NCBI GenBank assembly: GCA_964487695.1
Contig: CAZASC010000003.1
Coordinates: 19,306-83,305 of the forward strand
Source of the DNA: an uncultured Victivallales bacterium
GTDB lineage: Bacteria > Verrucomicrobiota > Kiritimatiellia > UBA8416 > CAZASC01
Length of the DNA stretch: 64,000 bases
Reading direction: 5' to 3'
The notes below the pieces were generated by a model. The model was not told the origin of the DNA. It saw only the letters and a list, made by a program, of their open reading frames with translations, and did no database searches. Below are positions 9,315-39,310 of this stretch, piece after piece; positions within the stretch are counted from its first letter, which is position 1, and the number at the start of each line of letters is the position of its first letter. The position numbers and the translations under genes are program-made.

Positions 9315-9606
9315 CAGTTATCTCCTTGTTCTATTTAAGCCCCAAAGACTCTCTTTTTCACTGTCAAAAGTAAAGCTGAAATAACTGAAATGTGACAAGA
9401 TAAAATGAAGTTATGCCCATCTCGTCATCGTCTTCTTAAATACTGTGATAGCGTCTCATTTCTGCCAATCTGCTGTAAATAGGACAAATCTATAAAGTCA
9501 GGGATGGATCGCTTGGATCTGCGCCTGTGGAACGAATTGGCAGGGCCGGTTTTATACTGGCCACGTCCGAAGCCGACATAAAGTTGGCTCTACCAGGAAA
9601 AACACA

Positions 9607-9737: not shown

Positions 9738-9790
9738 CATAGATACAGATTGTTGCAAAATACTACACTGGCAAATCCGCGTTGTGTGCT

Positions 9791-11044: not shown

Positions 11045-11194
11045 GATTACCTCCCGAATTTTTTGTTTGTTACAGCGAGAACCGTGCCACAAAAGGGAAG
11101 CATTGTCCAGAATACATGATGCTTTATCCATGGTCTTTCGGGTTAAACTTTGCTGAAGCTGTGACGAAGCGTGGGCTACAACTTGCAACATCTG

Positions 11195-11797: not shown

Positions 11798-11799
11798 CG

Positions 11800-12900: not shown

Positions 12901-12959
12901 ATGCCGAACCCTTTTGCCGGGTTTCTTAGTGTCTTTGTATTTGTTCCAATCGGATTACT

Positions 12960-14283: not shown

Positions 14284-14318
14284 CTTTTCGGCGGAAGGAG
14301 ACAGATGCGACCGATCAC

Positions 14319-17060: not shown

Positions 17061-20000
17061 GCATGCTCCAGATCGCAGCGCAGACACCGCCGGGCTTCAC
17101 TTCTGGCTTCAACGTCACCGAGCGTGGCCACCACCTCGTCGAACGATGCTGTCCGCGACACGAGCCCTGCCAGGCGCGCATGCGGACGTGGAGGGGCCGA
17201 CTCGCCTTCAGCGGCGTAGCGTTTTTGCGTAAGCTTGAGATTGTCTGGCAGTTCTCCCTTGCCGCCGAAAATACGGTCAATGGAGCAGGCGGCACGCTGG
17301 CCGTCTCCAATGGCCTGTACCACGGACGCCGGCCCACGCGCACAATCGCCACCGGCGAAAACGCGTTCGCGGCTGGTGGCCAGCGTGACAGTGTCCACCT
17401 CGTATGTACCGTCTGTGTTCAGGCGTAGTCCCCACGCATCATTTGCGGCCACCTTCTGGCCTACCGCACTGATGATTGTATCGCATGGAATCTGGAACTC
17501 TGAGCCTGCGATCGGCTTCGATTGCCGGCGCCCACTCTCATCGGCTGTTCCAAGTTCCATCCGGACGCACTTGAGAGCTGTCACATGGCCCTTGTCGATC
17601 ACAGCCGCGACAGGCTGCGTCAGAAATTCGAGCTTTATGCCTTCCGCACTTGCTTCCTCAATTTCCTCGGTATAGGCCGGCATCTCGGCGCGGGTGCGGC
17701 GGTACACGACGGTCACCTCTCCGCCGTTTCGTCGTGCGCTGCGCGCCGCGTCAATGGCCACGTTGCCGCCACCAATGACCACGGTGCGCCCCAGTTTCTG
17801 CGGAGCCCGTCCGAATGCGGCGTCCCTCAGGAATCGGACGCCGTCAAGAACGCCCGGTGTGGTTGTGTCGAATCCCTTCAGAGGCGTGCTTTCATGTGCG
17901 CCGACGCCCAGGAACACAGCCCCGTATCCGGCGTCGAACAAATCCTCCAACCGATTGACGGGCGAGTCGAGTTGCAGTTTTACGCCCGTGGAAAGAATGA
18001 AATCTATGTCCAATTTGAGGCGATCGTCTGGCAGGCGGTATCTGGGAATTCCGACAAGAAGCATGCCTCCGGCTTTGGGCAGGGACTCAAAAATTGTCAC
18101 GCTATGGCCGAAAGAACGCAGGAAATACGCGCAAGTCAATCCTGCCGGCCCGGCTCCTACGACGGCCACCTTCTGCTTGGTCTCGCTCACCGTCCACTGT
18201 TCGGGGGCCCGCCACGGAGCGGCAACTGTGTCCGTAATATGGCGCTTGATGTCACGAATGGAAAGAGGCTCGTCTATATCAGTGCGGCGACAGCGGTGTT
18301 CGCAGGGATGGTCGCATACGCGACCACAGACAGAGACCAGCGGATTGCGCATCTGAATGACGGCCAGCGCTTCGGTATAGCGGTCCTCGGCGGCAAGGGT
18401 CAGGTAATCCGGTACGTCAACCCCTGCCGGGCAGGCATGGCTGCATGGCGACTCGACGAGTCCCGGACAAGCCGAAGCTCTGCACTGCTTCAGCGCGATG
18501 TGCTCCATGTATTCTTCGCGGAAGTGGCGTAGCGTACTCAGCACCGGATTGGCCGCAGTCTGGCCAAGCCCGCAAAGTGAGTTCTTCTTGACCTGATAGG
18601 CAAGAGCCTCGAGTTTATCCAAATCGGACAGCTCTCCCTTGCCGGCGCAAATGCGCTGGAGAATTTCCAGCATCCGCGTAGTTCCAATCCGGCAAGGCGG
18701 ACATTTGCCGCACGATTCCTTGGCGCAGAAATCCATGAAGTAGCGGGCGATGTCCACCATGCAGGTGTTCTCGTCGAGTATGATCAGACCGCCTGAGCCC
18801 ATGATGGCGCCGACTTCTTTTACCGACTCGTAGTCTATTGGCAGATCCAGATAGCGGGCCGGCACACACCCACCGGATGGGCCGCCCATTTGCGCGGCCT
18901 TGAAGGCACGTCCTTTCGGAATGCCGCCGCCGATTTCATAAACGAGCTGGCGGAGCGTAATGCCCATTGGGACTTCCACGAGGCCGGTGTGATTCACTTT
19001 ACCCGCAAGCGCGAAAATTTTTGTCCCTCTGCTTTTTTCCGTGCCAAGCTTTGCATATTCCTCAGCGCCCATTCCAAGAATTGCCGGGATATTGGCGTAC
19101 GTTTCCACGTTGTTGATGTTCGTGGGTTTGCCCCACAAACCGGCTTGGGCGGGGAACGGCGGGCGTGGTCTGGGCTGGCCGCGTTTTCCTTCAATGGAAG
19201 CCATAAGCGCTGTCTCTTCGCCGCACACGAACGCTCCGGCGCCAATCTTGATCTCCAGATCGAAATCGAAAGTGGTGCCGAGTATATGTTCTCCCAGAAG
19301 ACCCGATTTCATGGCTTGCTTGATGGCTATCCCGAGATGTTCGATGGCGATTGGATACTCGGCCCGAACGTAGACGTATCCACGTCTTGCGCCGATGGCG
19401 TAAGCTGCGATCAACATCCCCTCCAGCAATGCGTGAGGATCGCCCTCAATGACGGCCCGATCCATGAACGCTCCGGGATCTCCTTCGTCGGCATTACAGA
19501 CAAGGTACTTGATGTCGCCGGCTGCGGCGCGGGCGAGACTCCATTTTAAACCGGTTGGAAACCCGGCCCCGCCTCGTCCACGAAGGCCGGATGTGGTAAT
19601 CTTTTCTATCACAGATTGAGGAGCCATTTCGGTCAAGACCCGGTCGAATACATCGTAAGCGCCCTCCGCGAGAGCCGATTCGATGTCTGTGGGATCTATT
19701 CGTCCGCATCGATCAAGAACGATTTGTTTTTGGGCAGAGAAGAAAGGTATATCGGCGCGTCGTGGGATGGGGGCGTTTTGACCACTGAAGCAAAGGCGAT
19801 CCACCACACCTCCGCCGATCAGGGTGGTGCGGACGATTTCGGCCACATCTTCGGGTTTGGCGCCCACGTAGACGATTCCGTCAGGATCAATGCTGATCAC
19901 CGGTGCGCCGGCGCAAACGCCCTGGCAACCGGTCTTGATCAGGGCGACGGCATTTGTCAGGCCTGACGATGCCAATTCTTTCTCGAATGCCGAGTGGACA

Positions 20001-20122
20001 TTGAGAGCGCCCAATGCCCTGCATCCCGTCGCGCAGATTCGCACCGCCCTTTTAGGTTTGTGTGTCTGTGCTTCACTACGGCGCAGACGCAGTTCTTTGA
20101 TCTGTGCTGTTATCTCAGACAT
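17051..20122 (-). CDS. Fusion of NuoF-like FMN/NAD(H) module and GltD/NfnB-like FAD/NADPH oxidoreductase module
   Basis: N-terminal thioredoxin-like 2Fe-2S segment. NuoF blocks: GLRGRGGAGFPTGLKW, KYLVCNADEGDPGAF, ESCGKCPPCRIGT. GltD-like part: Cys clusters (CPGLVESPCSHACP; CGRVCDHPCEHRC), VAVVGAGPAGL (FAD) and VVIGGGNVAIDAA (NADPH). Start is ATG 20122; a TTG at 20137 overlapping the upstream stop is an alternative. Confidence 0.8.
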   Translation of the reverse strand: MSEITAQIKELRLRRSEAQTHKPKRAVRICATGCRALGALNVHSAFEKELASSGLTNAVALIKTGCQGVCAGAPVISIDPDGIVYVGAKPEDVAEIVRTTLIGGGVVDRLCFSGQNAPIPRRADIPFFSAQKQIVLDRCGRIDPTDIESALAEGAYDVFDRVLTEMAPQSVIEKITTSGLRGRGGAGFPTGLKWSLARAAAGDIKYLVCNADEGDPGAFMDRAVIEGDPHALLEGMLIAAYAIGARRGYVYVRAEYPIAIEHLGIAIKQAMKSGLLGEHILGTTFDFDLEIKIGAGAFVCGEETALMASIEGKRGQPRPRPPFPAQAGLWGKPTNINNVETYANIPAILGMGAEEYAKLGTEKSRGTKIFALAGKVNHTGLVEVPMGITLRQLVYEIGGGIPKGRAFKAAQMGGPSGGCVPARYLDLPIDYESVKEVGAIMGSGGLIILDENTCMVDIARYFMDFCAKESCGKCPPCRIGTTRMLEILQRICAGKGELSDLDKLEALAYQVKKNSLCGLGQTAANPVLSTLRHFREEYMEHIALKQCRASACPGLVESPCSHACPAGVDVPDYLTLAAEDRYTEALAVIQMRNPLVSVCGRVCDHPCEHRCRRTDIDEPLSIRDIKRHITDTVAAPWRAPEQWTVSETKQKVAVVGAGPAGLTCAYFLRSFGHSVTIFESLPKAGGMLLVGIPRYRLPDDRLKLDIDFILSTGVKLQLDSPVNRLEDLFDAGYGAVFLGVGAHESTPLKGFDTTTPGVLDGVRFLRDAAFGRAPQKLGRTVVIGGGNVAIDAARSARRNGGEVTVVYRRTRAEMPAYTEEIEEASAEGIKLEFLTQPVAAVIDKGHVTALKCVRMELGTADESGRRQSKPIAGSEFQIPCDTIISAVGQKVAANDAWGLRLNTDGTYEVDTVTLATSRERVFAGGDCARGPASVVQAIGDGQRAACSIDRIFGGKGELPDNLKLTQKRYAAEGESAPPRPHARLAGLVSRTASFDEVVATLGDVEARSEARRCLRCDLEHACK

Positions 20123-20133
20123 GAACAAACCTT

Positions 20134-20649
20134 TCAATCAGCCGTGTTTCCGGCTGCATCCTTCCCATCTATTGCGTCCAGAATCTTTACAGCCCTGTCG
20201 GGTGTCAACCTGCCGAAGTATTGACTGTCCACGAGCATGACAGGCGACAGAAAGCAAGTGCCAAGGCAGGCCACGGTCTCAAGCGAGAAACGCATGTCTG
20301 GTGTGGTTTCGCCATCCTCAATTCCCAGATGCTGCGAAACCTTGGCAAGAACCTGCGGCGCATTCCTGACGTGGCAGGCAGTGCCGCGGCAGACTCGGAC
20401 TGTATGTTTTCCGTGCGGCTCAAGATGAAATTGTGCATAGAAAGTGGCCACCCCGTAAAATTTGGCAACTGGCATGCCGCTTAACCGGGCCAATTCGTCC
20501 ATGGCCGGTCTCGGCAGGTAGCCGTAGCGGTCCTGGATATCCTGAAGAGAACTGATGATGCTGCCTTCCGTAAACGGCGCATAAGAAGCTACGATTGTGG
20601 CCACCGGCGCCAGATCAACATCATGCTTTTCAACGGCTTTCGTTTTCAC
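20134..20649 (-). CDS. NuoE/HydC-like thioredoxin-fold [2Fe-2S] ferredoxin subunit
   Basis: Cys pattern CRGTACHV ... CLGTCFLSP, typical of the 24-kDa NuoE family. First gene of the fdh cluster. Confidence 0.8.
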   Translation of the reverse strand: MKTKAVEKHDVDLAPVATIVASYAPFTEGSIISSLQDIQDRYGYLPRPAMDELARLSGMPVAKFYGVATFYAQFHLEPHGKHTVRVCRGTACHVRNAPQVLAKVSQHLGIEDGETTPDMRFSLETVACLGTCFLSPVMLVDSQYFGRLTPDRAVKILDAIDGKDAAGNTAD

Positions 20650-20747
20650 AAAACTCCTGTCAGGTGCAAACCACTACCACAATGTAGTATGGTACGTTTA
20701 ACTGACGATACGACTCAAGGAAAAAACATATTGCTTTGCCGCCGGCT

Positions 20748-21347
20748 TTACAATCGTCTCCGCATCAGACAGGACCATGCCTGTGGCGGATCGGCCTGGT
20801 CGGAGTCAAAATGAGTTGCCGCCAGCTCGATAATCTCAAAACGGCTCTCGACTGCGGCTGTGATTTCAGACGCCGACCAGCGCGGTGGGCCCACTTCGCT
20901 CTTCGGTCCATCGCTGCTTCCGATAAGGCTTACCCATAGACCACGATCCGCCAGAGAGCCGTATACGGCTTCGACCCAGATTCTTCTGTCATTCGTAGCT
21001 TCGAAGCAATGGAGACAACCACGGTCGAACACGAGTCCAAATTGGCCGCCGGGGAGTTTGTCCGACAACACGTTGACTACGCTGAAATCCACGCGGGCTT
21101 TCCGCTCCTGGGCTTTTCGACGTGCCTTGTCCACCGCCGCCGCAGAAACATCCACCGCCTTTACCTGGAATCCACGGGCCGCGAGCCAGATGGCATTGTT
21201 TCCAGTTCCGCACCCGATTTCCAGGGCGGCACACGGCTTGATGGAATGCGCCTCAATCAACCGTTCGAGATTCCTGTCGTGGCGTTCAGTTTCCCACGGA
21301 GTTCCGTTTTTCAGGTATCGTTCGTTCCATTGCGCTTGTGTATCCAT
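20748..21347 (-). CDS. Class I SAM-dependent methyltransferase (TPMT/TehB-like)
   Basis: Trimmed to ATG 21347. Contains WNERY..GTPWE and the SAM motif ALEIGCGTGNNAIWLA. Confidence 0.65.
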   Translation of the reverse strand: MDTQAQWNERYLKNGTPWETERHDRNLERLIEAHSIKPCAALEIGCGTGNNAIWLAARGFQVKAVDVSAAAVDKARRKAQERKARVDFSVVNVLSDKLPGGQFGLVFDRGCLHCFEATNDRRIWVEAVYGSLADRGLWVSLIGSSDGPKSEVGPPRWSASEITAAVESRFEIIELAATHFDSDQADPPQAWSCLMRRRL

Positions 21348-21384
21348 GTGGACGGATTTCCTTCTAATATCGCATTCAGCGTGC

Positions 21385-22626
21385 TCATTTCGTTCCCTCC
21401 TGCTGTGCCGGGGCACCGGACGGGAGAGGCGAGTGATGGGAGTATAGAAACTCAACGAGATCGGCCATCTCACCGGGCTCGAATTTCGGCCATGGAATCC
21501 CTTTTGCCGCCATCAGTGGCACCATTTCTTCGGCATTGTTCCACATGGCATTGATCATATCTAAAGGAGACATGATGGCCTTCGACTTGTCAGGGTGCGG
21601 GCCCGCAGAACTCCCGAATTCGGCAGGTGTGTGACACTCGCTGCAGCGACGCTTAACAAACAATTCTTTGCCACTGGACGCATTGCCGGGTTTGTCGAAA
21701 TAATTGATGAAATACAGATAGGCAATGATGTCGGCCATTTCATTGTCCTGGAACTTCACTATGGCTATCTTGCGCTCCCGCATCTTTTCCCACATGGCAG
21801 TTCCATGGTTCCACATGAGGCCGGCGACCTGGGTCACGCTGCGCACGAGCTCTTCCCGTCGTTTACCGAGATCTGGCACCTCTGGCAGGCCTCCCGCACC
21901 GCGCACCGGGTGGCACTCGGCGCATCCCTTGCTGGCGAACAGGTCGCGACCGCGGCGCGGGTTACCTGGCTGCATATACACTGGATCGGCATTGGCCGGC
22001 GCCGCCGTGTGCTGAAGGTAGGCTATCAGATCAGCCATCTGATCCTCCTCGAACTTAGGACGGGAAACGCCCTGCTTGAGGAACTCTTCGCTCATGGGCA
22101 CGCCGTGGTTCCACATGGCCTGGGCGATCACGATCGGCGAAAGCTTGGCGTACCCGCGCAGGCTCGGGCCCACTTTCTCAAAATCAGCTTCCCGCTGCAG
22201 CGAATGACATTTCGAGCAATTCTTCTGATCGAAAATCTCCCGGCCCTTTTCGGGGTCGCCGGGCTTGCCGAGTTGCGCCAAATAGAACTGGTAAGCTGTG
22301 AGGAAGGCGACCAGGTTGGCCATTTCCTGGGGAGTCGTCTTTGGCACGTCTATATGCAAGGCCACCATGTTCTCGTACATCGCTGGTGCGTGATTCCACA
22401 TGGTACCGGCCACGTCCAGCAGGCTGCCTTTCAGGTGGATCCGGCCTAGATTTGGACCGATCCGGCCTCCCGCTTCGCCAATGGCGTGGCACCTGACACA
22501 GCCTTTTTCCTGAAAAAGCCGCGCACCATACGAAGGATCCTCAGGCAACGGAATGGGGTCTTGCGCCATGGCCACGGATGTACCCAGGATTAGTAGGCTT
22601 AACCAAGTGGAATGAATGACGTTCAT
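21385..22626 (-). CDS. Secreted cytochrome c with four tandem class-I-like monoheme domains
   Basis: Signal peptide, then CVRCH, CSKCH, CAECH and CSECH. Each is followed ~35-45 aa later by an MWNH/MWNN..M block and an E..DL.A(Y/F)L helix. The start overlaps the NrfD gene by 4 nt. Confidence 0.75.
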   Translation of the reverse strand: MNVIHSTWLSLLILGTSVAMAQDPIPLPEDPSYGARLFQEKGCVRCHAIGEAGGRIGPNLGRIHLKGSLLDVAGTMWNHAPAMYENMVALHIDVPKTTPQEMANLVAFLTAYQFYLAQLGKPGDPEKGREIFDQKNCSKCHSLQREADFEKVGPSLRGYAKLSPIVIAQAMWNHGVPMSEEFLKQGVSRPKFEEDQMADLIAYLQHTAAPANADPVYMQPGNPRRGRDLFASKGCAECHPVRGAGGLPEVPDLGKRREELVRSVTQVAGLMWNHGTAMWEKMRERKIAIVKFQDNEMADIIAYLYFINYFDKPGNASSGKELFVKRRCSECHTPAEFGSSAGPHPDKSKAIMSPLDMINAMWNNAEEMVPLMAAKGIPWPKFEPGEMADLVEFLYSHHSPLPSGAPAQQEGTK

Positions 22627-23978
22627 GCTTCCTCCACCGTTGTTGCGGGGGGCAAATAGGTCTGGATACGCGCGACGGTTTCAGGCACAGCCACCTCGCG
22701 GCCTTCCCGTATTTCCCAGATGGAAATAATTGGAAACAGTTTGGTGAACAACATGTAGACCAGAATGAACCCGGCAAAACATCCAGCCATCAGCGACCAC
22801 TCGACCCATGACGGATGATAGAAATGAAACTCCACGGGCAATCGCGGGTTGGACAAAGACGGTACGACAATGGTGAAACGCTCAAGCCACATGCCGATAT
22901 TGATGGAGATGGAGGCGATCAAGGTCCCATTGATCGTGCGCGTGCGAGAGTTGCACAGGATGGCGAACGGGATGATAAAACAGGTCAGGAACATCGTCCA
23001 GAAGAGCGGCGCATAAGATCCGGTGAACTTGGCCCAGAAGACGCTCATCTCAACGGGCTCATGGCCGTACCAGGCCGTCAGGTATTCGGCCAGAGTAAAG
23101 TAGAACCACAACAACGTCATCACGAACAGCAGAATGCCCAGATTATTGAAATGCACCGGTCGCAGGTAGGCCTCGAGGTGATACACCTTGCGGATAATGA
23201 CCATTGCCGTAATGAGTGCAGCAATCCCCGAGAAAATGGCGCCGACAACGAAGAACGGTCCAAAAATTGTCGAATGCCACATGGGCATGATCGTCATGGC
23301 AAAGACCCACGATACGATCGTATGCACACTGATCGCAATGGGAATAATGATCACCGCCAGAACGCTGATCACCTTTTCGATCCTATGCCATTGCTTGTCG
23401 GTACCAGTGAATCCCATCGCCAGCACACGATAAACCGGTTTGCGCCATCCGGTGGCCACATCCCGCAGGATGGCCAGGTCGGGAATCAAGGGCATATACA
23501 GGTAAATCGAGCTGCCTGTCAAATAGACGCAGATGCTGCTGATGTCCCATAGCAGTGGGGACGTGAAATGGGCATGGGTGATCACATACAGGGCGCGATC
23601 CGGACGGCCCAGATCGAGGAGCACGTTACCCACGCCGAAGAACAAGACGAGCACGGTAATCATTTCCGCCATGCGCGTGATGGAGCGACGCCATTCCGCC
23701 CGGCAGAGCCGCAGGATCGCCGAGATCAGCGTCCCGGCATGGCTTACGCCGATGAAGAAAACGAAGTTGGTGATATAAATGCCCCAATACACGGGGCGAT
23801 TTAATCCCGTCATGCCCAAGCCGTTACGCAATTGCCAGCAGTAGGCCCAAATGGCCCAGCCGACCACGCTTGCCAGTATGGCGACGGCCGTATAGAAGCC
23901 CCGGCCTGACGTGAAAATGGGCTTGAATATCTGTCGATCCTGATCGTAGGCGGTCTTGCTGTCGAGGAGATGCGGCAT
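22623..23978 (-). CDS. NrfD/PsrC-family integral membrane quinone-interacting subunit (large, ActC/QrcD size class)
   Basis: 451 aa and highly hydrophobic. The N-terminal region (..FYTAVAILASVVGWAIWAY..GMTGLNRPVYWGIYITNFVFFIGVSHAGTLISA..) is typical of the NrfD family. Lies directly after the FeS subunit. Confidence 0.8.
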   Translation of the reverse strand: MPHLLDSKTAYDQDRQIFKPIFTSGRGFYTAVAILASVVGWAIWAYCWQLRNGLGMTGLNRPVYWGIYITNFVFFIGVSHAGTLISAILRLCRAEWRRSITRMAEMITVLVLFFGVGNVLLDLGRPDRALYVITHAHFTSPLLWDISSICVYLTGSSIYLYMPLIPDLAILRDVATGWRKPVYRVLAMGFTGTDKQWHRIEKVISVLAVIIIPIAISVHTIVSWVFAMTIMPMWHSTIFGPFFVVGAIFSGIAALITAMVIIRKVYHLEAYLRPVHFNNLGILLFVMTLLWFYFTLAEYLTAWYGHEPVEMSVFWAKFTGSYAPLFWTMFLTCFIIPFAILCNSRTRTINGTLIASISINIGMWLERFTIVVPSLSNPRLPVEFHFYHPSWVEWSLMAGCFAGFILVYMLFTKLFPIISIWEIREGREVAVPETVARIQTYLPPATTVEEA

Positions 23979-23981
23979 GGT

Positions 23982-24665
23982 TTAGATTCCCTCTTTCAGG
24001 TAGATGACTTTTGGTTTGGTGCCGAGGTCTTCCATCAGGCGCTCAGCCCGCGGGCTGCGCGCCCATTCGGCGACCTGACTGTCCGGATTGTCAAGATCGC
24101 CGAAGACCATCGCGCCGGCGGGACAGGCCTGCACGCAGGCCGGCTGGTAATCTTCGTCGCGCATGGCGCGGCCCTCGGCTTCAGCGGTCTCCTTCGCCTT
24201 GGTCCGGCGATGACTGCAGAAGGTGCATTTCTCGATTACGCCCTTTGGGCGCACTGAAACGTCACTATTCAACGAGGCCTGCAGTTGCTTGGGCCATTCT
24301 GGTGCGGTCCAATTGAAATACTTGACCGTATATGGGCAGGCATTGGCGCAGTAGCGGCAGCCTATGCAGCGGGGATAAGTCTGGGCCACAATCCCTTCCG
24401 GCGTTATGTAGGTTGCGCGTGTGGGGCACACGAAGATACAAGGGGGCCGGTCGCAATGTTGGCAGAGCATGGGACGAAAACGCACCTTCACATCAGGAGA
24501 TTCGCCTTCGACCTCTGTCTGGATGTACATCCAGGAAATCTGTCGACCTTTCTCGGCCGTCGCCGGCGTAGAGAAAGGAACATTATTTTCCTGCTTGCAG
24601 GCGATCACACACGCCTGACAGCCGGTGCAACGGTCCAAATCAATTACCATTCCCCAACGGGGCAT
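23982..24665 (-). CDS. Four-cluster 4Fe-4S ferredoxin-type subunit (NrfC/PsrB/QrcC/ActB2-like)
   Basis: Motifs CTGCQACVIACK, CQHCDRPPCIFVCP, CIGCRYCANACP and CTFC...CVQACP. It has no signal peptide of its own, so hitch-hiker export with the TAT-MopB is plausible. Confidence 0.85.
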   Translation of the reverse strand: MPRWGMVIDLDRCTGCQACVIACKQENNVPFSTPATAEKGRQISWMYIQTEVEGESPDVKVRFRPMLCQHCDRPPCIFVCPTRATYITPEGIVAQTYPRCIGCRYCANACPYTVKYFNWTAPEWPKQLQASLNSDVSVRPKGVIEKCTFCSHRRTKAKETAEAEGRAMRDEDYQPACVQACPAGAMVFGDLDNPDSQVAEWARSPRAERLMEDLGTKPKVIYLKEGI

Positions 24666-27100
24666 CAGCCACCTCCTGTCGCTTTTGAAATCCGCACGCG
24701 TGTAGTCGCCGCCAAGGCCATAGATCCAAACCCTGTCGCATCCGTGCGATACGCGATCAGATCGCTCACCCCGGTCGACGCTTTCTTTACGTATTCGCCT
24801 CCGCCCTGATGCTCCTGCCCCAGCAACACGCTGAGAACATTCTTCATGCCTCTCGGAGACACACGCGCTCGAATCATGATCTTACCGAGCGGCGATTCGA
24901 GCCACACCCAGTCCTCCTTCGCGATCCCAAAGCGGCGTGCTGTTTCGGAATCCATTTCCACCCAGCTATCCCATCGGGCATAGACGAGGGGCGAAAGCGC
25001 TTCCTGCAAAAACGACTGGTTCGGGTTTTCCAGACCGCCCGTGGTGAGGACGGTAAACACTTTCAGCAGCAACGGGAATTCACGGGGGTCGCCGGCGAGG
25101 GGAACCGGCACGAAACGGGGCATCCACGCGTTCTCGGACGGCTGCGTGGGGTGAGCTACCGCCAGCGCCTGCGACACAAACTCGAATTTTCCGGAGGCGG
25201 TTCGCAAAACCCGCCGCCATTGTTCATATGAATAAATCGGATCCCACCAGCCGCCTGTTTTCACCAGCTGATCCCAGAATTCATCGAAGGTCTTGGCGGA
25301 TGGAATCCACCAGCCCCCGGTTTCGAGTTGCTGTGTCCATGCGTCCTCATAAGGTGTGGTGTAAGGTGAGCCTCTGCGCGACTCGAACAAGCCTTCCGCC
25401 ACAAACCGCAACACATCATGCGCGGTTTGCCATGGAAATGCGGCCGCAACAGTCCCGCCTTGATCGCGCCCTAACGAGATTATCACTTCGCTCATGAGCC
25501 GCGTGTCCAGCAACGGTGCAAGCGCCGGCGGGCTTAGTGCCCACACCGGCGTGCCGTTGACGGGCAGCGGTGCGGCGTCCTGCCATTTCTCCAATGGAGA
25601 ATGATCTGGCAAAATCAGATCGGCCAGCGCGGCGCTGTCGTCGAGCGTGCTGGAGAAACTCACGATGAATGGAATGTTTTCTGCCGCTTCGAAGAATTTC
25701 TTCTCCTGCGGCGCGATTGAAAAGAAACGACTGCTCGAAATGAACAGAGCCTCGACCGGGTATGGTTTAAGCGAAGCAATGACCTCCGCCAACGCAGGTA
25801 GCACCGCCCCATCTGCCGGGAATCCAAAAGGAACAGGTTTCAGCGGTTGCGACAGTCCGCGCTGAGCTACTGCGTCTAGTATAGGTTCGTCAAATGCTTT
25901 CAGCGGCAGCGGACGCTGGGTCAATACGCCGCCAGGTCTGTCTATCATGCCGTTGAGTGCGTTGAGTGCGAGGACAGACCAGGCTAACGGTATCCCGCCC
26001 GACAAAGGGATCTGCTCGCCAACGACCAGTGCCGGCCTGTTGGCCGAGATCTCGCGGGCCAACCGCAGGATGGTAGTCGCGGGGACTCCGGTCACTGCGG
26101 CCGTATCGAGCGGCGCATAATCGCGCAGCAAGACCGTCCGAAAGCCGACATGCTCCCGGCCAGAGGCATCTGTCCAGTCCTCAAACCCGGCGGTATGGTC
26201 CGATACGAAGGCCCGATCATACAGGTCTTCGCGGATCAGCACATGGGCGATCGACAGGGCAAGGGCCGACTCCGTCCCTGGGTTAATGGGGATCCATTCA
26301 TCGGCCTTAACCGCCGTGGGCGATAGCCGCGATTCCACCTGGATGAAACGTCCGCGCCGTTCCGGCTGCCCCCTCCGCAGATGACCGAACTGTCTGGCCA
26401 TCCACGTGGGCGACAACCAGGCTTCGAGCACGGGCGTGCCGAACGACAGGACATACGTGGTTTTTTCGAAATCGTAAGCCGGCAGTTCCTTTACACCCTG
26501 GCAGAAGTAAGCTGCGGCGCGCGCAGCCTCATCCCGGATATCGGTAAACTCGAATAGATTGGGGCTGCCATAAGAGCGCATGAAACGGCGGATCAGTTGG
26601 CCTGTCGTGGCATCGTCACGCTCGGCGATCCATGCCAGAGCCTGTGGTTTGTTTTGCGTTCGCATACCGCCGAGATGTGACCGGATATCAGCGAGCGCGT
26701 CCTCCCACGAGATGCGAGCCCACTTATTGGCACCGCGCGGCCCAACTCGTCGCACAGGGCAGAGCAGACGATCCGGATCGTAAAGTGCCTGAATGGCCGC
26801 CTGGCCTTTCGGGCACAACGTCCCACGCGCTATCGGGCAGAGGGGATTACCATCCAGCTTCTTCACATTCCCATCCACCAATCGCACCCGCAGGCCGCAG
26901 GCCGCGGGACACTGACGGCAGATGGACGACATCCATGTTTCGATACCGGGTCCTTCTACCGGATAATCGGGGGTTATCTTCCGTATAAGGGTATCGCCCA
27001 GATAGGCGCCAAGAGTAATGCCTGCAGCGGACCCCCCGACAAGCTTCAGAAAATCGCGGCGGTTTATTTGCCATGGATTATTATTTGAGGGAGTCGTCAT
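24665..27100 (-). CDS. TAT-exported molybdopterin-oxidoreductase (MopB) family catalytic-type subunit, substrate unknown
   Basis: Twin-arginine signal NRRDFLKLVGGSAAGITLG. FS0-type cysteines CRQCPAACGL...CPKG. 811 aa. Overlaps both neighbours by 1-4 nt. Confidence 0.8.
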   Translation of the reverse strand: MTTPSNNNPWQINRRDFLKLVGGSAAGITLGAYLGDTLIRKITPDYPVEGPGIETWMSSICRQCPAACGLRVRLVDGNVKKLDGNPLCPIARGTLCPKGQAAIQALYDPDRLLCPVRRVGPRGANKWARISWEDALADIRSHLGGMRTQNKPQALAWIAERDDATTGQLIRRFMRSYGSPNLFEFTDIRDEAARAAAYFCQGVKELPAYDFEKTTYVLSFGTPVLEAWLSPTWMARQFGHLRRGQPERRGRFIQVESRLSPTAVKADEWIPINPGTESALALSIAHVLIREDLYDRAFVSDHTAGFEDWTDASGREHVGFRTVLLRDYAPLDTAAVTGVPATTILRLAREISANRPALVVGEQIPLSGGIPLAWSVLALNALNGMIDRPGGVLTQRPLPLKAFDEPILDAVAQRGLSQPLKPVPFGFPADGAVLPALAEVIASLKPYPVEALFISSSRFFSIAPQEKKFFEAAENIPFIVSFSSTLDDSAALADLILPDHSPLEKWQDAAPLPVNGTPVWALSPPALAPLLDTRLMSEVIISLGRDQGGTVAAAFPWQTAHDVLRFVAEGLFESRRGSPYTTPYEDAWTQQLETGGWWIPSAKTFDEFWDQLVKTGGWWDPIYSYEQWRRVLRTASGKFEFVSQALAVAHPTQPSENAWMPRFVPVPLAGDPREFPLLLKVFTVLTTGGLENPNQSFLQEALSPLVYARWDSWVEMDSETARRFGIAKEDWVWLESPLGKIMIRARVSPRGMKNVLSVLLGQEHQGGGEYVKKASTGVSDLIAYRTDATGFGSMALAATTRVRISKATGGG

Positions 27101-27630
27101 TTATGACACCTGGCGCAATCGGTTGAAACGTTGTTTTCAGTGTGACAATCCAAACAATCTTTCATATGGATGACCCTTACCTTTTCAGGTGGTTTGACTG
27201 AGGTGGGCATGCCGTCATGGCACATGACGCAATCAATTCCTCCCAGCGTGGCGTGCTCACGATGGGAAAAATAGATGCTCCGAGGTTCCCGCGTCAGTTT
27301 TTTCCATTGAATGTGCCGGACCTTAACCGCTTGCTCCCAGACAGCCGTATTCCACACGACGTTTGGCGGCGGCGTGGCGTGACAATTGAGACAGATATCC
27401 ATGTCCGGCAAGCCCGCATGCGCCCGCTTATCCACGCCGTTATGACACATAACGCAGGCCATAGCCCGGTGCTTGGAATGGTTGAAGGGGATCGGTTGGA
27501 TGACCGCCTGGGGATGCAACCACGGTTTTAATGGCAACTGGAAAGCGATACGCGCCACGAAGGCTACCGCCATCATGACCAGCATCAACACTATCCAACT
27601 TCGTGAACCTCTGGAAAGTCGATCCGCCAC
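27097..27630 (-). CDS. Membrane-anchored pentaheme cytochrome c (ActA/QrcA-like position)
   Basis: N-terminal TM (WIVLMLVMMAVAFVARIAF). Five CXXCH: CVMCH, CLNCH, CVMCH, CLDCH, CARCH. Confidence 0.75.
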   Translation of the reverse strand: MADRLSRGSRSWIVLMLVMMAVAFVARIAFQLPLKPWLHPQAVIQPIPFNHSKHRAMACVMCHNGVDKRAHAGLPDMDICLNCHATPPPNVVWNTAVWEQAVKVRHIQWKKLTREPRSIYFSHREHATLGGIDCVMCHDGMPTSVKPPEKVRVIHMKDCLDCHTENNVSTDCARCHK

Positions 27631-27631
27631 G

Positions 27632-28078
27632 CTAAAAAGTCTCCTTCTCTCCTGCCGGCATCAAACTGAAAAGGTATTTCTGCACCGCGTCCAGATCGTC
27701 ATCTGGAATCCACTTCGCAAACGCCGGCATGCGAAATGGAGGAGTCGGCCCGTCCGCCCTCTTTTTGTCAATCGTCGGTTGCCCGCGGCGGATAAATTTT
27801 TTCAGTTCGTCCGCTGTGTATCCATCAGCGACGTAAGTCAGCGGAGGCACCTTATCGAGTGTCTTTGCATTGGGGTTGGCAATGCCGGACTTGGCGTCCT
27901 TACCATGGCACATCACACAGCCGTATTTCTCGAACACCTGGCGGCCCAATTGTACAGGATCGGCGGGCGGCACCGGACGTTTCGCCGGCGCTTGTTTGGC
28001 AGACACATGCGAATCGCCGCTTGGTCCGCAACCAACGACCGAAAGGAGAATAACGCTTATAATCAATGGCCAACGCAT
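27632..28078 (-). CDS. Monoheme class I cytochrome c lipoprotein
   Basis: Lipobox LLSVVGC, a single CVMCH, and distal Met context FRMPAF. Confidence 0.7.
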   Translation of the reverse strand: MRWPLIISVILLSVVGCGPSGDSHVSAKQAPAKRPVPPADPVQLGRQVFEKYGCVMCHGKDAKSGIANPNAKTLDKVPPLTYVADGYTADELKKFIRRGQPTIDKKRADGPTPPFRMPAFAKWIPDDDLDAVQKYLFSLMPAGEKETF

Positions 28079-28083
28079 GGACG

Positions 28084-28563
28084 CTATTTTTTCTCGTACT
28101 TGTCGTGGACTTCCTTGATCTTGTCTTCGGCGGCCGTCTTTTCTTCTGGTGTTGCCTTGGCAAGCTTCTCATCCACCATAGCCTTCTTGCGAATGCTGGA
28201 GTCATACGTCAGAAAGTCAAAGATCTTCTTGGCGTCGGCGCTGCTGATGCCTGAGCCGGGCTTATGCATCATGCGTTTGATGTAACGCTCCCATTCTGCG
28301 GGCAACGCGTAGTCCGAGTTGATTGGACGGCTTAGTTTATGACACTGCGAGCATTTTTGACTGAAAACTTCGTAGTTCTCCTGTATGCCTTCCGGGTACT
28401 TGGAAACGTCTATTGTCGCAGAACCCTTTTCGAATCGTTCAACACGCTCCTTGGTTTCAGGATCCAGCGAAACGTCCGGCGGGCGATCCCCGCCTCGACC
28501 GAGCATGGCAAGCGCGGAGACGCCGATGAAGATACTGGCATATTTGAGCTTCACTGAGAACAT
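28084..28563 (-). CDS. Secreted monoheme cytochrome c (uncharacterised type)
   Basis: Signal peptide and a single CSQCH, followed by ..PAEWERYIKRMMHK..AKKIFDFL... It appears paralogous to the 29915-30223 product. Confidence 0.6.
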   Translation of the reverse strand: MFSVKLKYASIFIGVSALAMLGRGGDRPPDVSLDPETKERVERFEKGSATIDVSKYPEGIQENYEVFSQKCSQCHKLSRPINSDYALPAEWERYIKRMMHKPGSGISSADAKKIFDFLTYDSSIRKKAMVDEKLAKATPEEKTAAEDKIKEVHDKYEKK

Positions 28564-28587
28564 ATCGTGTATTCCTTTTTTTGAGTG

Positions 28588-29901
28588 TTAGAACCCATAT
28601 GAGAACTGTAGCACAAAATCGTTATGCGCCTGCGAAGGATCGTCGCTGCCTATGGATTCATAGTCGCCCTCGAAAAGCAGCGTATTTGAAAGATAGTAAA
28701 CATATCCCATGGTGCACCGATGCGTTCGAGTCCCCATATCATCATCTGTCCTGTCGTACCGGCTTACCAGTTCGACGTCGTTAACGATCGGAAGATCCAT
28801 GTCCAGAGCGGCTAATTTATAGGACGCTTGGATCCAAAAGCCCCGTGGTCGGATTGTCCCAATGTCATCGGTTTCCTGCCAGGTATTGATGCACTCGCCC
28901 TTCGCCTCAAAATATGGACTGAGGTGTAAAGCGGCATCTAGCACACCGGCTGACCACAGGCGTTTCCCTGCGTCGTCCCAGGCGCCGGACTGGCCCGAAA
29001 CTCCGAGTTCGAGGTCATAATGCGCTTTCCAAGGTAGGAACCAACCCAGACGTCCGCCGCCACTGGGTGAACTATGCAGATTGGCGGTCGTACTGTCAGA
29101 CTTGATGCCCACGTTTCCGCCGAGATCAAGGTTAGGGATTGAATTGCTGCCGGCATCGAGCGTTGTGGAATTGCCGGAACCATCAACCGAACTTGGGCCG
29201 TTCACGCCATAGACGGCGTACGTGAACACTTGGCCAGAGTCATCCAAAGGAATGGATCCCCGTATCTGAACACCGATACCGCTGTCCTGCAGGAGGGCTC
29301 GTGGCAAAGGATCGTCAGGTATTTTGTTGAGCCATCCAGCGCCCCTCTCGGTGTACGTGCCCAGCGGCAGCAGCATGTAGCCAGCCACGATGGTCGCGTA
29401 GTCATTCAGCAGATAATCCAGTTGCGCAAAACTCAGGTCAATCGTTGTCTGTGATGAGCTGTCGTGCGTTTGTCCGTTCAGGAGCGTGGTCGAGCCATTC
29501 TGCAACCCAATATCGAAGCCAGCTTCAAACAACACGCTATCCGACGCCCGATAGAGGAAGATCGGCGCGAAATCTGCGAAAGTGAAGCCGCTGCTCTGAC
29601 CCTCTACTTTGCCGAACTGTACTTCCGCGTCGCCCACCATCATGAAGTTATGGCTTGCGCTTGATCCCAAGGCAGACGCTGGGTAGACAGGTTGCACCAC
29701 GGACACCTCGGACTTTGCCGCCGTATTGGTTGCAACCGCTTGCGTCTTCTCCACTTGATCTATACGCCCTCCTTGCTTGCTGACTTGATCCTTCAAAGTA
29801 TTGAAGTCTTCATCACTCACCGCCAGCGCATGAGAAGTCAAGACAAGCCCCATCATGCATCCGATAGTCCATACGCTTGAAACCTGGAAATAATTTCTCA
29901 C
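28588..29901 (-). CDS. Outer-membrane porin-like beta-barrel protein
   Basis: Signal peptide, a coiled-coil-like N-terminal segment (SDEDFNTLKDQVSKQGGRIDQVEKTQ), and Gly/Ser/Asp/Tyr-rich alternating sequence. It ends in the aromatic C-terminus ..VLQFSYGF typical of OM barrels. Confidence 0.6.
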   Translation of the reverse strand: MRNYFQVSSVWTIGCMMGLVLTSHALAVSDEDFNTLKDQVSKQGGRIDQVEKTQAVATNTAAKSEVSVVQPVYPASALGSSASHNFMMVGDAEVQFGKVEGQSSGFTFADFAPIFLYRASDSVLFEAGFDIGLQNGSTTLLNGQTHDSSSQTTIDLSFAQLDYLLNDYATIVAGYMLLPLGTYTERGAGWLNKIPDDPLPRALLQDSGIGVQIRGSIPLDDSGQVFTYAVYGVNGPSSVDGSGNSTTLDAGSNSIPNLDLGGNVGIKSDSTTANLHSSPSGGGRLGWFLPWKAHYDLELGVSGQSGAWDDAGKRLWSAGVLDAALHLSPYFEAKGECINTWQETDDIGTIRPRGFWIQASYKLAALDMDLPIVNDVELVSRYDRTDDDMGTRTHRCTMGYVYYLSNTLLFEGDYESIGSDDPSQAHNDFVLQFSYGF

Positions 29902-29914
29902 TGGTGCGATCCTC

Positions 29915-30223
29915 CTAGTTACCGCTTTCTTCCTGGAGATACTTTAGAATCTTTTTGGCCTGCGTCGCGGGAATGTTAGCCCGCACGCGCATATGAATCA
30001 TTAGAGTCTTCCACTGCGCCGCTGTCCATTCAGTCGGATATCGCTCCGGATGGCAGCGGTTGCAGTTGATCGCGTATAGTTCGGCTCCGGTGGGCGCTTT
30101 GGGTTTGGCCGTTTTTTCGCCATCGGCCATGGCAATGACGATCGTTGACGCTATGATGGCCCCAGCTGCGACCCAGGCAGCGCCCCCCCATCGTCGCAAT
30201 TTCACGGAACGTGATTGGTTCAT
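29915..30223 (-). CDS. Small membrane-anchored monoheme cytochrome c
   Basis: Trimmed to ATG 30223. TM segment AAWVAAGAIIASTIVIAMA and a single CNRCH, followed by ..PTEWTAAQWKTLMIHM..AKKILKYL.. Confidence 0.6.
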   Translation of the reverse strand: MNQSRSVKLRRWGGAAWVAAGAIIASTIVIAMADGEKTAKPKAPTGAELYAINCNRCHPERYPTEWTAAQWKTLMIHMRVRANIPATQAKKILKYLQEESGN

Positions 30224-30379: not shown

Positions 30380-30793
30380 CTATCTTTCGGCCAGCACTTT
30401 CCTGATTTCATCGAGCAGGCGCATGGCGGAAATCGGTTTTTCCAGAAAGACTGCTGGCGCGGATCCCAAGTACTGCTCCATGCTTTCGCTTCCGAACGGC
30501 AAACCAGTCTTACTGGCAACCTCGGAAAGCATGATAACGGGTATGTCGCGGGTTATGTCGTCGCTCCGCAGATTGCAGAAGGCGGTGAAGCCATCCATGC
30601 CACCGGACATCATTACGTCCAGCACAATAAGAGCAGGCTTTTCAATTCGCGCCTTAAGAATCGCCTCCTCGCCATCGGCAGCTGAAATAACTGCATACTC
30701 CGCTCCGATCGCCTTTTGCGCGAAATTTACGCATTCGTCGTCATCGTCCGCGATCAAAACCGATTTCCTTTTGCTTTTATTTCCAACTATCAT
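30380..30793 (-). CDS. Stand-alone response-regulator receiver (CheY-like)
   Basis: VLIADDDDE acidic pocket, phospho-acceptor context LIVLDVMMSGGMDG, and conserved Lys in FLEKPI. No output domain. Confidence 0.8.
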   Translation of the reverse strand: MIVGNKSKRKSVLIADDDDECVNFAQKAIGAEYAVISAADGEEAILKARIEKPALIVLDVMMSGGMDGFTAFCNLRSDDITRDIPVIMLSEVASKTGLPFGSESMEQYLGSAPAVFLEKPISAMRLLDEIRKVLAER

Positions 30794-30997
30794 TGCGCTT
30801 TATTTTATCCATAATATTCATCGTCAACAATGGGATAATTCTACAGGACATCCGTTCGCGAGGGCTTTCCCCTTGAGTCCGCCGTGCAGTCTACTGTATA
30901 TTTGCAACTTGTTGGCGCTTGGGATGGTGGGCGGCTCGTGAGAAATCAGGAACGCCATCCCTGGTCAACGCTGGTGTCGGACAGGGGATGTATATCC

Positions 30998-31852
30998 ATG
31001 TTGTTGGAAGCTTCATTGGCTGCTTCGGGAATCGGGCTGTTCTGCGTCGCTTCGGTGTTTTCCGTGGCCTGCCTGTTGTGTCGGAATCCGCCCGGAAGAG
31101 GTGAATTGGGAGTCTCCTTGCTTCTGGCATTGGGATGTGTCCCCCTCGTAGCGGTTCTGCTCCTGCGAAGCGCCAACACTGGCCGCGTGCCGCTCTTCAG
31201 CACTTTTGACGCCTTGACGGTCTATGGTGTGTTCCTCACCATAGCCGCACTCTGTTTCCTCACAAGACATCGGACGCAAGGAGTATTCGCGATCCTGTCC
31301 CCATATGTAACTATTATATTGATCGCAGGCTTTCCCGCCGTCGGCGTGGAAACTGGGCCTGTGCCGCATACGGTATCGAACGTGGTTTTGTTATCGCACA
31401 TGATTATCGCCTTCGCGGGATATGCGCTTTTCAGTCTGGCCAGCATTCTTGCTTTTGCCTACCTTATTCAGAATCGCAACTTCAAACATCGTAATTTCGG
31501 CGTGGTTTTCGAGCGATTGCCGGCATTGGAAACGTTGGACGACCTGATGTTCCGCCTGGTTGGTTTCGCGTTTCTCCTTCTGACGATCTCCCTCATGTTG
31601 GGCGTGTACCTGGTTCACCAGAGCGGCAGTGGCGCTGAATGGGCGGCAGACCCCAAGGTCGTGGCGACTTTTGTGACGTGGGCGCTCTACGCGGGACTAG
31701 TGCACATGCGCGCCAACGCCGGAAGGCACGGCACTCGACTGGCGCTGGTCACTTTCATCGGGCTCGCCTTTGTATTGTTTTCCATGATTGGCGTTCACAT
31801 GGTCGCGCATAGCGTCCACGGATTTGTCCAGATCGGTGTCGCAGCAAAATGA
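30998..31852 (+). CDS. CcsA-like cytochrome c assembly family / HemX-like membrane protein
   Basis: Trimmed to ATG 30998. Polytopic protein with the block ..ADPKVVATFVTWALYAGLVHMR.. seen in CcsA-like proteins encoded next to hemA. Its stop overlaps the hemA start. Confidence 0.65.
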   Translation: MLLEASLAASGIGLFCVASVFSVACLLCRNPPGRGELGVSLLLALGCVPLVAVLLLRSANTGRVPLFSTFDALTVYGVFLTIAALCFLTRHRTQGVFAILSPYVTIILIAGFPAVGVETGPVPHTVSNVVLLSHMIIAFAGYALFSLASILAFAYLIQNRNFKHRNFGVVFERLPALETLDDLMFRLVGFAFLLLTISLMLGVYLVHQSGSGAEWAADPKVVATFVTWALYAGLVHMRANAGRHGTRLALVTFIGLAFVLFSMIGVHMVAHSVHGFVQIGVAAK

Positions 31853-34815: not shown

Positions 34816-34826
34816 AGAGAGATAAT

Positions 34827-36371: not shown

Positions 36372-36564
36372 AGGAGAGGCCGCTTGTCTGGCTGGATGAC
36401 ATGGGTTTTATGTGGTGCATAATTCGATTAATCGTAGAATGATCCTATTGTTGCACCCAGGCGTTTTGCGCTAATATATGGATGGTTTCGTGGTAAAAGG
36501 TTTAGTATCAAGCATGTACCGATATTGGGCGCTCGAAGTGACGAAAAGTCAGGAGAAAGATGTG

Positions 36565-39237: not shown

Positions 39238-39310
39238 AACAGGATTGATAAATCTATGGCTGCTACCGCCCGCCGGTTTGCCGGCGGGCGGCTGGCTTTT
39301 GGAGAAGGAG

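Follow-up and report, generated by a model that had tools for sequence, protein, structure and literature searches.

A nine-gene run from an uncultured Victivallales bacterium that may join a reduced alternative complex III-like core to a cytochrome-porin cassette

Alternative complex III (ACIII) has a single 3Fe-4S cluster beside its quinol site, and in R. marinus its ActB subunit is exported by the twin-arginine translocation (TAT) pathway (PMC5928083). Reduced forms have also been described: iron oxidisers harbor an ACIII module with a split ActB, whose ActB1 part has a CX2CX3CX27C motif (PMC4643136); Nitrospirales carry actAB1B2CDE without ActF or ActG (PMC12342949); and MBNT15 has a reduced module with a four-haem ActE-like protein (PMC9386147). 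In the Qrc complex, QrcB is a relic without cofactor (PMC6303296, PMC13059093). Here we describe a run of nine genes at positions 21385-30223 of a 64,000-nucleotide stretch of DNA from an uncultured Victivallales bacterium (assembly GCA_964487695.1, contig CAZASC010000003.1, positions 19,306 to 83,305 of the forward strand), hereafter the window. Because reduced ACIII modules are already in the literature, the kind of complex is known. Judged from its sequence, the core of this run is distinguished by a MopB subunit that bears the FS0 motif and lacks the molybdenum (Mo) ligand, and by an iron-sulfur (FeS) subunit whose cluster ligands are all cysteines. The most interesting element is a c1-porin-c2 cassette that is systematically linked to complex-III-type modules and that also exists in a fused form.

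We consider it an even call that the run consists of two joined modules, a reduced ACIII-like core and the c1-porin-c2 cassette. In the order of the run, the genes are:

29915-30223, minus strand: c1, a small monohaem cytochrome c (CNRCH, the one CxxCH) with an N-terminal signal peptide or anchor; cassette gene 1.
28588-29901, minus strand: outer-membrane porin, N-terminal coiled coil followed by a barrel of about 16-18 strands (AlphaFold model and Foldseek).
28084-28563, minus strand: c2, a secreted monohaem cytochrome c (CSQCH, the one CxxCH); cassette gene 3.
27632-28078, minus strand: c3, a monohaem class I cytochrome c lipoprotein (lipobox VVGC; Pfam Cytochrom_C, 2.7e-10).
27097-27630, minus strand: ActA-like, membrane-anchored pentahaem cytochrome c (five CxxCH, one N-terminal helix, PDB matches).
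24665-27100, minus strand: TAT-exported MopB, ActB1-like, with FS0 intact and Arg189 in place of the Mo-ligand Cys (Pfam, alignments, model).
23982-24665, minus strand: four-cluster FeS subunit, ActB2/QrcC/PsrB-like, 16 Cys and no signal peptide (Cys groups, QrcC model).
22623-23978, minus strand: ActC-like NrfD quinone-site subunit with 10 transmembrane helices (PDB ActC matches, hydrophobic segments).
21385-22626, minus strand: c4x, a secreted cytochrome with four class I monohaem domains in the ActE position (four CxxCH, Pfam Cytochrom_C).

The nine tightly packed minus-strand genes reported in an earlier, sequence-only reading of this DNA are all present as open reading frames (ORFs). Intergenic distances along the run are 13, 24, 5, 1, -4, -1, 3 and -4 nt, and the genes contain 1, 0, 1, 1, 5, 0, 0, 0 and 4 CxxCH motifs, respectively. 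The arrangement is not due to chance, as a five-gene core is syntenic in about 50 of 79 related loci and all nine genes recur elsewhere. When promoters and terminators were scanned to delimit the operon, counts were at or below shuffle expectation, and the terminator scan showed no clear terminator 3' of c4x. The sequence-only reading had called c1 a small transmembrane monohaem protein. Its single haem motif is confirmed; the transmembrane anchor, however, may be a cleavable signal peptide, since the N-terminal hydrophobic stretch terminates in AMA/DG. Just upstream of the run is a gene for a stand-alone response-regulator receiver (30380-30793, minus strand); in a distant relative, such a gene directly precedes that of the pentahaem protein (L164:8924-9328).

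The likeness of the core to Qrc and ACIII, also proposed from the sequence, is borne out. The pentahaem protein is c7-type according to Pfam and NCBIfam, and its best PDB matches are the ActA chains of four ACIII structures (6lod, 8k9e, 6btm and 6f0k; E 6e-16 to 5e-11). Residues 34-425 of NrfD align to the 10-helix ActC, with E values of 7.7e-76 for 6f0k_C (Rhodothermus) and 1e-74 for 6btm_C (Flavobacterium), and a transmembrane helix count yielded 10 hydrophobic segments. The list of ActC functional residues of Sousa et al. (PMC5928083) was mapped onto this alignment: identity was found at 14/14 positions of the cytoplasmic proton half-channel, at 4/6 of the periplasmic half-channel and at 6/9 of the quinol pocket. 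Scores with the Qrc models of NCBIfam were far under the cut-offs for all four subunits (71 bits for a cut-off of 180 with QrcA, 232 for 440 with QrcB, 282 for 400 with QrcC, and 44 for 570 with QrcD). Together with ActA and ActC as best matches, these scores indicate that, in its membrane and haem parts, the complex belongs with ACIII and not with Qrc.

The FeS subunit has 16 Cys arranged in four ferredoxin-type groups. All 16 are kept in the window protein and in the other aligned FeS subunits of the family; hence, the 3Fe-4S signature is missing at the quinone-proximal cluster. The bona fide ActB of locus L042 has Thr at the tenth Cys, which fits the single 3Fe-4S cluster of ACIII. In Cys content the sequence of the FeS subunit resembles those of Arr/Psr enzymes. 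As it lacks a signal peptide, it is probably co-exported with MopB. Beyond NrfD, the four Pfam Cytochrom_C stretches of c4x occupy the place where ActE would be expected, but the protein has four domains; a gene of this kind follows NrfD in about 50 loci. Like ActE, c3 is a monohaem lipoprotein, but as a candidate ActE it was set aside because it shows no specific similarity to any ActE chain, only generic CcoP-like PDB matches. Domains homologous to c3 come after cytochrome b in Rieske-type cassettes.

Several of these traits weigh against a core that behaves simply as an ACIII. The quinol pocket is altered at two of its three charged residues (H139 to D and D253 to V), an all-Cys FeS subunit takes the place of one with a 3Fe-4S signature, and the run lacks ActD and ActF: NrfD and c4x overlap by 4 nt, with no gene between them, and a second NrfD is not encoded. 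By its gene content and homologies, the core is a reduced ACIII-like module with a split ActB. The altered pocket residues also bear on another view of the core, namely that it works like Qrc, taking electrons from periplasmic cytochromes and reducing menaquinone electrogenically. We regard this as rather doubtful. QrcC and QrcA are indeed the best NCBIfam models for the FeS subunit and the pentahaem protein, four all-Cys clusters suggest potentials below the +140 mV of the ACIII 3Fe-4S cluster (PMC5928083), and models of iron oxidisers run an ACIII-like complex in reverse (PMC4643136). Yet every Qrc model remains below its cut-off, the membrane subunit is ActC-like, the partner cytochromes have class I domains that are not of the low-potential c3 type, and the cassette is usually found with Rieske/cytochrome b complexes.

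The distribution of the core was examined by a MopB scan with one genome per species, which detected relatives in 259 records; 79 loci were kept. The order pentahaem, MopB, FeS, NrfD and four-domain cytochrome is found in about 50 of them, and many others end at contig ends. The hosts are Thermodesulfobacteriota/Syntrophales, Acidobacteriota, Nitrospinota, Methylomirabilota, Aminicenantes, Planctomycetia, Binatia, Calditrichota and others. The nearest MopB relatives (62-65% identity) belong to metagenome-assembled genomes (MAGs) labelled Verrucomicrobiia, Lentisphaerae, Verrucomicrobia and Ignavibacteriales. Additional genes surround the core in a Thermodesulfobacteriota locus (L165:6515-22151): upstream there is an extra cytochrome-FeS-NrfD trio, and the core is followed by two four-domain cytochromes, a protein that binds cyclic nucleoside monophosphates, a GltD-like flavoprotein, a split cytochrome b, a Rieske protein and multihaem cytochromes. 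A FeS-NrfD pair upstream of the core recurs in about 20 related loci. In two cases (L042:1266-4211 and L164:22447 onward), a canonical fused ActB of ACIII and a member of the split family are found on one contig.

Whether MopB is a relic or a molybdoenzyme is a question that its sequence answers in part. The sequence-only reading had noted that the FS0 motif and the TAT signal are intact, and both are: the cysteines are spaced C61-x2-C64-x3-C68-x27-C96, and the twin-arginine motif is RRDFLK. The contrast with characterised relics also stands. The best sequence match is ArrA, over the full length (E 2.5e-61), followed by PsrA, and the solved ActBs come at about 1e-10. The AlphaFold2 model, with a predicted local distance difference test (pLDDT) score of 82, has the full four-domain fold and is closest to ArrA (template-modelling score, TM, 0.78), then to PsrA; no ActB is among the top 50 Foldseek matches. 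The FS0 cysteines are invariant across the MopB family, and they are missing in the solved ActBs 8k9e_B, 6lod_B and 6f0k_B. Pfam detects Molybdop_Fe4S4, Molybdopterin and Molydop_binding. An attempt to classify MopB as QrcB or ActB by profile was abandoned: PhsA (251 bits), QrcB (232) and ArrA (215) score nearly alike and far under their curated cut-offs, and in all 29 aligned relatives, too, none of the three reaches its cut-off.

The further step, from FS0 and TAT signal to a catalytic molybdoenzyme, is not supported. Where ArrA (SSVCAEA) and the Arr-, Phs- and Ttr-like references have the Cys that ligates Mo, MopB has Arg189 (EFTDIRDEAAR), followed by Asp190; in the model, residues 186-190 form a loop ahead of helix 191-201. 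Among 80 family members the ligand column contains W in 24, a gap in 14, G in 10, L in 8, A in 7, C in 7, R in 5 and other residues in the rest. This loop is hypervariable while the operon is constant and FS0 invariant. The replacement of the ligand by Arg189 and the variability of the loop are the reasons why catalysis finds no support. FS0 and TAT are not diagnostic either, because the fused, bona fide ActB of L042 (6lod_B, 7e-157) retains the FS0 cysteines and R. marinus ActB uses TAT export. Cluster N7 of NuoG is another FS0 retained in a domain without molybdenum cofactor. Other changes in MopB affect the ArrA substrate residues (RGRY to AERD, HS to FT) and the pterin region (VDPR to VESR, PGTD to PGTE). 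The Pfam Molybdopterin and Molydop_binding scores are 84 and 37 bits, compared with 260 and 96 for the alpha subunit of a formate dehydrogenase whose gene is also in the window, at a distance of 5 kb. From these comparisons, MopB has probably lost its cofactor.

Four observations speak for the contrary. The fold is complete and nearest to that of ArrA. Lys98 of the CPKG motif, which we take to be the relay lysine between FS0 and the pterin, is kept. Among 22 columns that are conserved in canonical enzymes and in the Cys subclade, and lost in bona fide ActB, MopB retains 17. Lastly, arsenite oxidase works without an obligatory protein ligand (PMC10100899). A MopB that is an active enzyme, with molybdenum or tungsten bound to bis-pyranopterin guanine dinucleotide, would be either free of a protein ligand, as in arsenite oxidase, or ligated through Asp190; the porin would admit a periplasmic substrate, and the cytochromes and the quinone site would be the source or the sink of electrons. 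We hold this to be unlikely. The all-Cys clusters of the FeS subunit, as in true Arr/Psr enzymes, the acidic residue found after the ligand column in most family members, and the presence in the window of FdsA-type formate dehydrogenase and FdhD, which shows an organism that makes the cofactor, would all fit an active enzyme, as would the loop Cys retained in Nitrospinota and Methylomirabilota members with the same operon. The ligand position is, however, occupied by a bulky Arg (Trp in the largest clade), the loop drifts freely under a constant operon, which active sites do not normally do, and the ArrA substrate residues are gone. Moreover, the porin cassette is not specific to MopB complexes, and neither a dedicated chaperone of the TorD/NarJ type nor a terminal oxidase was found in the portion of the window scanned for them, about half of its larger ORFs. 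Conservation of canonical positions was tried as a cofactor test and gave an intermediate, hence not decisive, figure for the window clade (0.69, compared with 0.54 in ActB and 0.83 in the Cys subclade).

A neighbour-joining tree was built with family MopBs, ArrA, Arr-, Phs- and Ttr-like paralogues, one bona fide ActB and FdhA as outgroup; QrcB, SoeA and the ActB1 of iron oxidisers were not part of the set. The window MopB falls into a clade with 100% support, which includes a locus labelled Gemmatimonas. ActB is placed only tentatively, with less than 50% support, inside the MopB family; the picture fits the report of Wells et al. that ActB is nearest to ArrAB (PMC10100899). The sequence-only reading had named a place inside the QrcB or ActB clades, together with loss of the ligand and pterin contacts, as evidence against catalysis. 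Half of this is seen, in that the ligand is absent. ActB nests with the family only at that low support, and the signs on pterin contacts are mixed, with 17 of the 22 columns retained and the VDPR and PGTD motifs changed.

The MopB family contains members of other kinds. Seven with the motif GHSSICADG have a plain MopB-FeS-NrfD layout without cytochromes. Nitrospinota and Methylomirabilota MopBs (STASGCEG; loci L007, L063, L065 and L069) combine a loop Cys with the pentahaem protein, an ActC-like NrfD and a four-domain cytochrome, and are by sequence the best candidates for a truly catalytic version. Because these Cys-bearing members already have the cytochromes and the ActC-like subunit, the family may capture steps from an Arr/Psr-type enzyme to ACIII.

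The second module is built around the 437-aa porin, for which no Pfam or NCBIfam match was found. Its AlphaFold model (pLDDT 61) contains a coiled coil and then about 16-18 strands, and Foldseek matches are 16-strand porins (OmpU, Omp32, OmpC and OprO/P; E about 1e-11). At least 1682 homologues exist; the best 120 share 52-73% identity, lack a Pfam domain and end in Phe without exception, and the few that are named belong to Verrucomicrobiota. The haem domains of c1 and c2 are paralogous, and c1 has weak matches to the TorC C-terminal domain, SorB and DHC. On three long contigs the porin is flanked by c1- and c2-type monohaem genes, and different modules follow: Rieske and cytochrome b in one; a GltD-like gene, Rieske, cytochrome b and a six-haem cytochrome in another; only a dihaem cytochrome in the third.

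A porin scan of metagenomes detected 527 relatives. We examined 84 loci, 35 of which were informative in having at least 3.5 kb of downstream sequence. The porin gene lies between two cytochrome genes in nearly all 84, with very short spacers; c1 is present in 73 and c2, directly after the porin, in 67. Downstream of the cassette, 24 of the 35 informative loci have Rieske/cytochrome b genes (16 with a GltD-like gene), 11 have only cytochrome c, and none has MopB. Hence, the partners of this module are enzymes of the complex III type and not a molybdoenzyme. The sequence-only reading had suggested that the porin might supply the substrate of MopB; this is disfavoured because the same cassette mostly precedes Rieske/cytochrome b complexes that lack MopB. 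Conservation of the porin beside the complex, which that reading had named as a check, is found in relatives: loci L001, L003, L166, L167 and L168 have all nine genes. In L166, in L168 and in L167 (Latescibacterota), the order is c3, porin, c1, c2, pentahaem, MopB, FeS, NrfD, c4x, and MopB is 43-47% identical. In L001, a Verrucomicrobiia MAG, the ACIII-like genes have the cassette on one side and a GltD-like-Rieske-cytochrome b set on the other, as though they had been inserted into a cassette-plus-bc operon. The cassette is abundant in metagenomes, those of soil and peat among them, and appears to belong mainly to Verrucomicrobiota.

Gene order around the cassette can be described in more detail for some of these contigs. 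Within loci L081-L163 (for example, L082:7449-15070), the 24 informative cassettes with Rieske/cytochrome b genes show a tight, operon-like series of c1-porin-c2, GltD-like flavoprotein (in 16), Rieske, cytochrome b and multi-domain cytochrome c, often with a PocR-AraC regulator upstream; in most Verrucomicrobial cassettes the GltD-like gene sits between c2 and Rieske. The L001 segment (641-17106) reads Rieske/cytochrome b pair, regulator, c1-porin-c2-c3, core with c4x, and GltD-like-Rieske-cytochrome b-six-haem set.

In two Aminicenantes loci, L071 and L049, a single protein consists of a signal peptide, a c1-type domain (CGRCH at residue 35 or 36) and a barrel of the same family. The L071 fusion (15983-17212) is complete, with 409 aa ending in RF, and its gene begins 260 nt after c4x; the L049 copy (21328-22452) is incomplete at the locus end. 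The fusion surfaced only in Aminicenantes loci from the set collected for MopB. Its homologues number 253; they are about 409 aa long, match DHC, Porin_4 and Porin_O_P, and are called 'porin' by NCBI. The possibility that the fused gene always accompanies an ACIII-like module was rejected, as it is solitary in three other genomes. The fusion is an argument for a role of c1 at the barrel, whatever the activity of the pair may be, and in the window c1 would probably be placed in the porin. Reports of cyc2 exist for Aminicenantes, Handelsmanbacteria and Rokubacteria (10.1101/777656, PMC7914226); members of this MopB family occur in these phyla, too. Full-text literature searches, on the cassette and on fused cytochrome-porins in these phyla, yielded no description of a porin-monohaem cassette upstream of complex III genes.

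Based on this analysis, we put forward tentatively, as a possibility well short of even, that c1 and the porin form a split Cyc2-like cytochrome-porin and, with c2 and c3, a hitherto unrecognised redox conduit for extracellular iron or humics that is hard-wired to complex-III-type modules, either Rieske/cytochrome b or ACIII-like. An electron-conducting porin has to be reconciled with several observations that point the other way. The 120 close homologues of the porin all lack CxxCH, and among 150 representatives of c1 clusters there is no protein of porin size; the barrel is similar to those of ordinary diffusion porins; the fused gene stands alone in the three genomes mentioned; and L004 has the core, c2 and c3 without c1 and porin, while L002 has none of the four.

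The porin could also be pictured as an ordinary major solute porin, related to OprO/P, that merely shares a respiratory operon, with c1, c2 and c3 as ordinary periplasmic carriers linking complex III to oxidases or reductases encoded elsewhere. General and phosphate porins are its fold matches, the fused relatives match Porin_O_P and Porin_4, 11 of the 35 cassettes lead only to cytochrome c, locus L080 includes haem A synthesis genes in its vicinity, and class I haem domains are typical of aerobic chains. What makes this explanation doubtful to us is that the gene is sandwiched by cytochrome genes, with such short spacers, in nearly every locus, that in distant lineages the four accessory genes accompany the ACIII-like core, too, though in another order, and that 253 proteins have c1 covalently fused to the barrel, which would make little sense if the haem domain did not function there.

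Joined together, the complex-III-type and the cytochrome-porin modules make a scheme in which our confidence, drawn from sequence comparison, is evenly divided. The first module (21385-27630, perhaps with c3) would be a reduced relative of ACIII. Quinol or quinone would react at the periplasmic face of the ActC-like subunit, and electrons would travel via the proximal one of the four FeS-subunit clusters to the ActA-like pentahaem protein and on to the class I cytochromes c3 and c4x, while the fully conserved cytoplasmic half-channel would couple electron transfer to proton movement. MopB would most likely serve as a TAT export partner and scaffold, probably holding the FS0 cluster without a cysteine-ligated Mo/W centre. 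The second module (c1-porin-c2, 28084-30223), normally found on Rieske/cytochrome b, would here and in a few lineages be placed on an ACIII-like module; c1 and the porin would probably make a two-piece outer-membrane cytochrome-porin with Cyc2-like architecture, and c2 would be a periplasmic shuttle. Both modules together would let electrons move between the quinone pool and the cell surface. Gene content, homologies, synteny, ligand loss and the fusion are observed; we infer the path, the absence of cofactor, the porin as the site of c1 and the direction in which electrons flow. The core running from quinol to cytochrome c is favoured; the data agree equally well with electrons being taken up from a donor outside the cell while the core runs in reverse. 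One reason to leave the direction open is that the FeS subunit is all-Cys, unlike that of ACIII. That no terminal acceptor was seen among the window ORFs scanned counts against the scheme.

The remainder of the window contains other redox genes. Three kb upstream of the run, on the plus strand (33379-40057), lies a multihaem/outer-membrane cluster composed of a 478-aa protein without Pfam match (a possible outer-membrane barrel), a 514-aa lipoprotein with 21 CxxCH, a 919-aa protein with 9 CxxCH and MtrC/MtrF domain matches, and a 270-aa protein. It looks like a porin-cytochrome type cluster for extracellular electron transfer, and we counted it in favour of the cassette as a surface route. Directly downstream of the run (13441-21350, minus strand) there are genes for a TPMT-like methyltransferase, a NuoE-like protein, a NuoF/GltD-like FeS flavoprotein fusion (1028 aa), the FdsA-type formate dehydrogenase alpha subunit (922 aa) and FdhD. 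The GltD-like half of the NuoF fusion scores 247 bits with the GltD-like gene associated with cassettes. At 3-8729, the window encodes a 1175-aa FMN_bind and Fer4_5 protein, an ApbE flavin transferase and CcsA/ResB genes for cytochrome c biogenesis, with a six-haem NapC/NirT-like cytochrome at 5112-6611; a second CcsA-like gene adjoins hemA (30884-33192). Genes for Rieske proteins or cytochrome b are absent from the window.

If the cassette is an outer-membrane conduit, abundant bacteria of soil and peat, apparently mainly Verrucomicrobiota, would gain a predicted redox route to iron and humics, and c1, porin and c2 would be a directly testable set of genes. Such a conduit would escape current marker-gene screens, in particular gene-by-gene searches for iron oxidases that expect haem motif and barrel within a single polypeptide. 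The MopB family, in turn, holds intermediates between Arr/Psr-type molybdoenzymes and the cofactor-less ACIII: a separate MopB that bears FS0, an all-Cys FeS subunit, an ActC-type membrane subunit, and a Mo ligand kept or lost by clade. It bears on how a catalytic subunit became a scaffold, and points to relatives in which one can ask whether the cluster wire into MopB still functions.

Compared with the ACIII structures from Rhodothermus, Flavobacterium, Roseiflexus and Chloroflexus, the window complex shares an ActA-like pentahaem protein, a TAT-exported MopB-like protein, a four-cluster FeS module and a 10-helix ActC-like subunit with a fully conserved cytoplasmic half-channel. It differs in that MopB and FeS are separate proteins, whereas ActB is fused; in that MopB has the FS0 cysteines that solved ActBs lack; in the absence of a 3Fe-4S signature, ActD and ActF; in having a four-domain cytochrome instead of the monohaem ActE; and in the two altered charged residues of the quinol pocket. 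The split-ActB modules of iron oxidisers, Nitrospirales and MBNT15 come closer, with the split itself and the CX2CX3CX27C motif of ActB1 (PMC4643136), the missing ActF/G (PMC12342949) and, in MBNT15, the four-haem ActE-like protein (PMC9386147); going by their descriptions only, they differ in keeping ActD and in having no porin cassette described.

QrcABCD, the menaquinone reductase of sulfate reducers, has the same order of multihaem, MopB-like, FeS and 10-helix NrfD subunits, and QrcC is the best-scoring named model for the window FeS subunit. However, all four window subunits remain under the NCBIfam cut-offs, NrfD is ActC-like and not QrcD-like, QrcB is described without redox cofactor while the window MopB has an intact FS0, and the partner cytochromes are class I, not c3-type. 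ArrAB and PsrABC are the closest relatives of MopB in sequence and fold; the FeS subunit shares all 16 Cys with them, and a Cys-bearing sister subclade (GHSSICADG) has their plain MopB-FeS-NrfD layout. The window MopB differs from them in lacking the Mo-ligand Cys and the ArrA substrate residues, and the complex in its added cytochromes and its 10-helix ActC-type membrane subunit.

Lastly, Cyc2 of iron oxidisers is a fused monohaem cytochrome-porin, an architecture that c1 and the porin reproduce when taken together. In the window the two parts are separate genes, and the combination of a monohaem domain with a barrel of at least 375 aa is reached only by adding one to the other; the Verrucomicrobial porin has, in addition, an N-terminal coiled coil. 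The Aminicenantes fusion has the architecture of Cyc2 in a single protein, an N-terminal CxxCH domain followed by a barrel, and the likeness drawn here is one of architecture.

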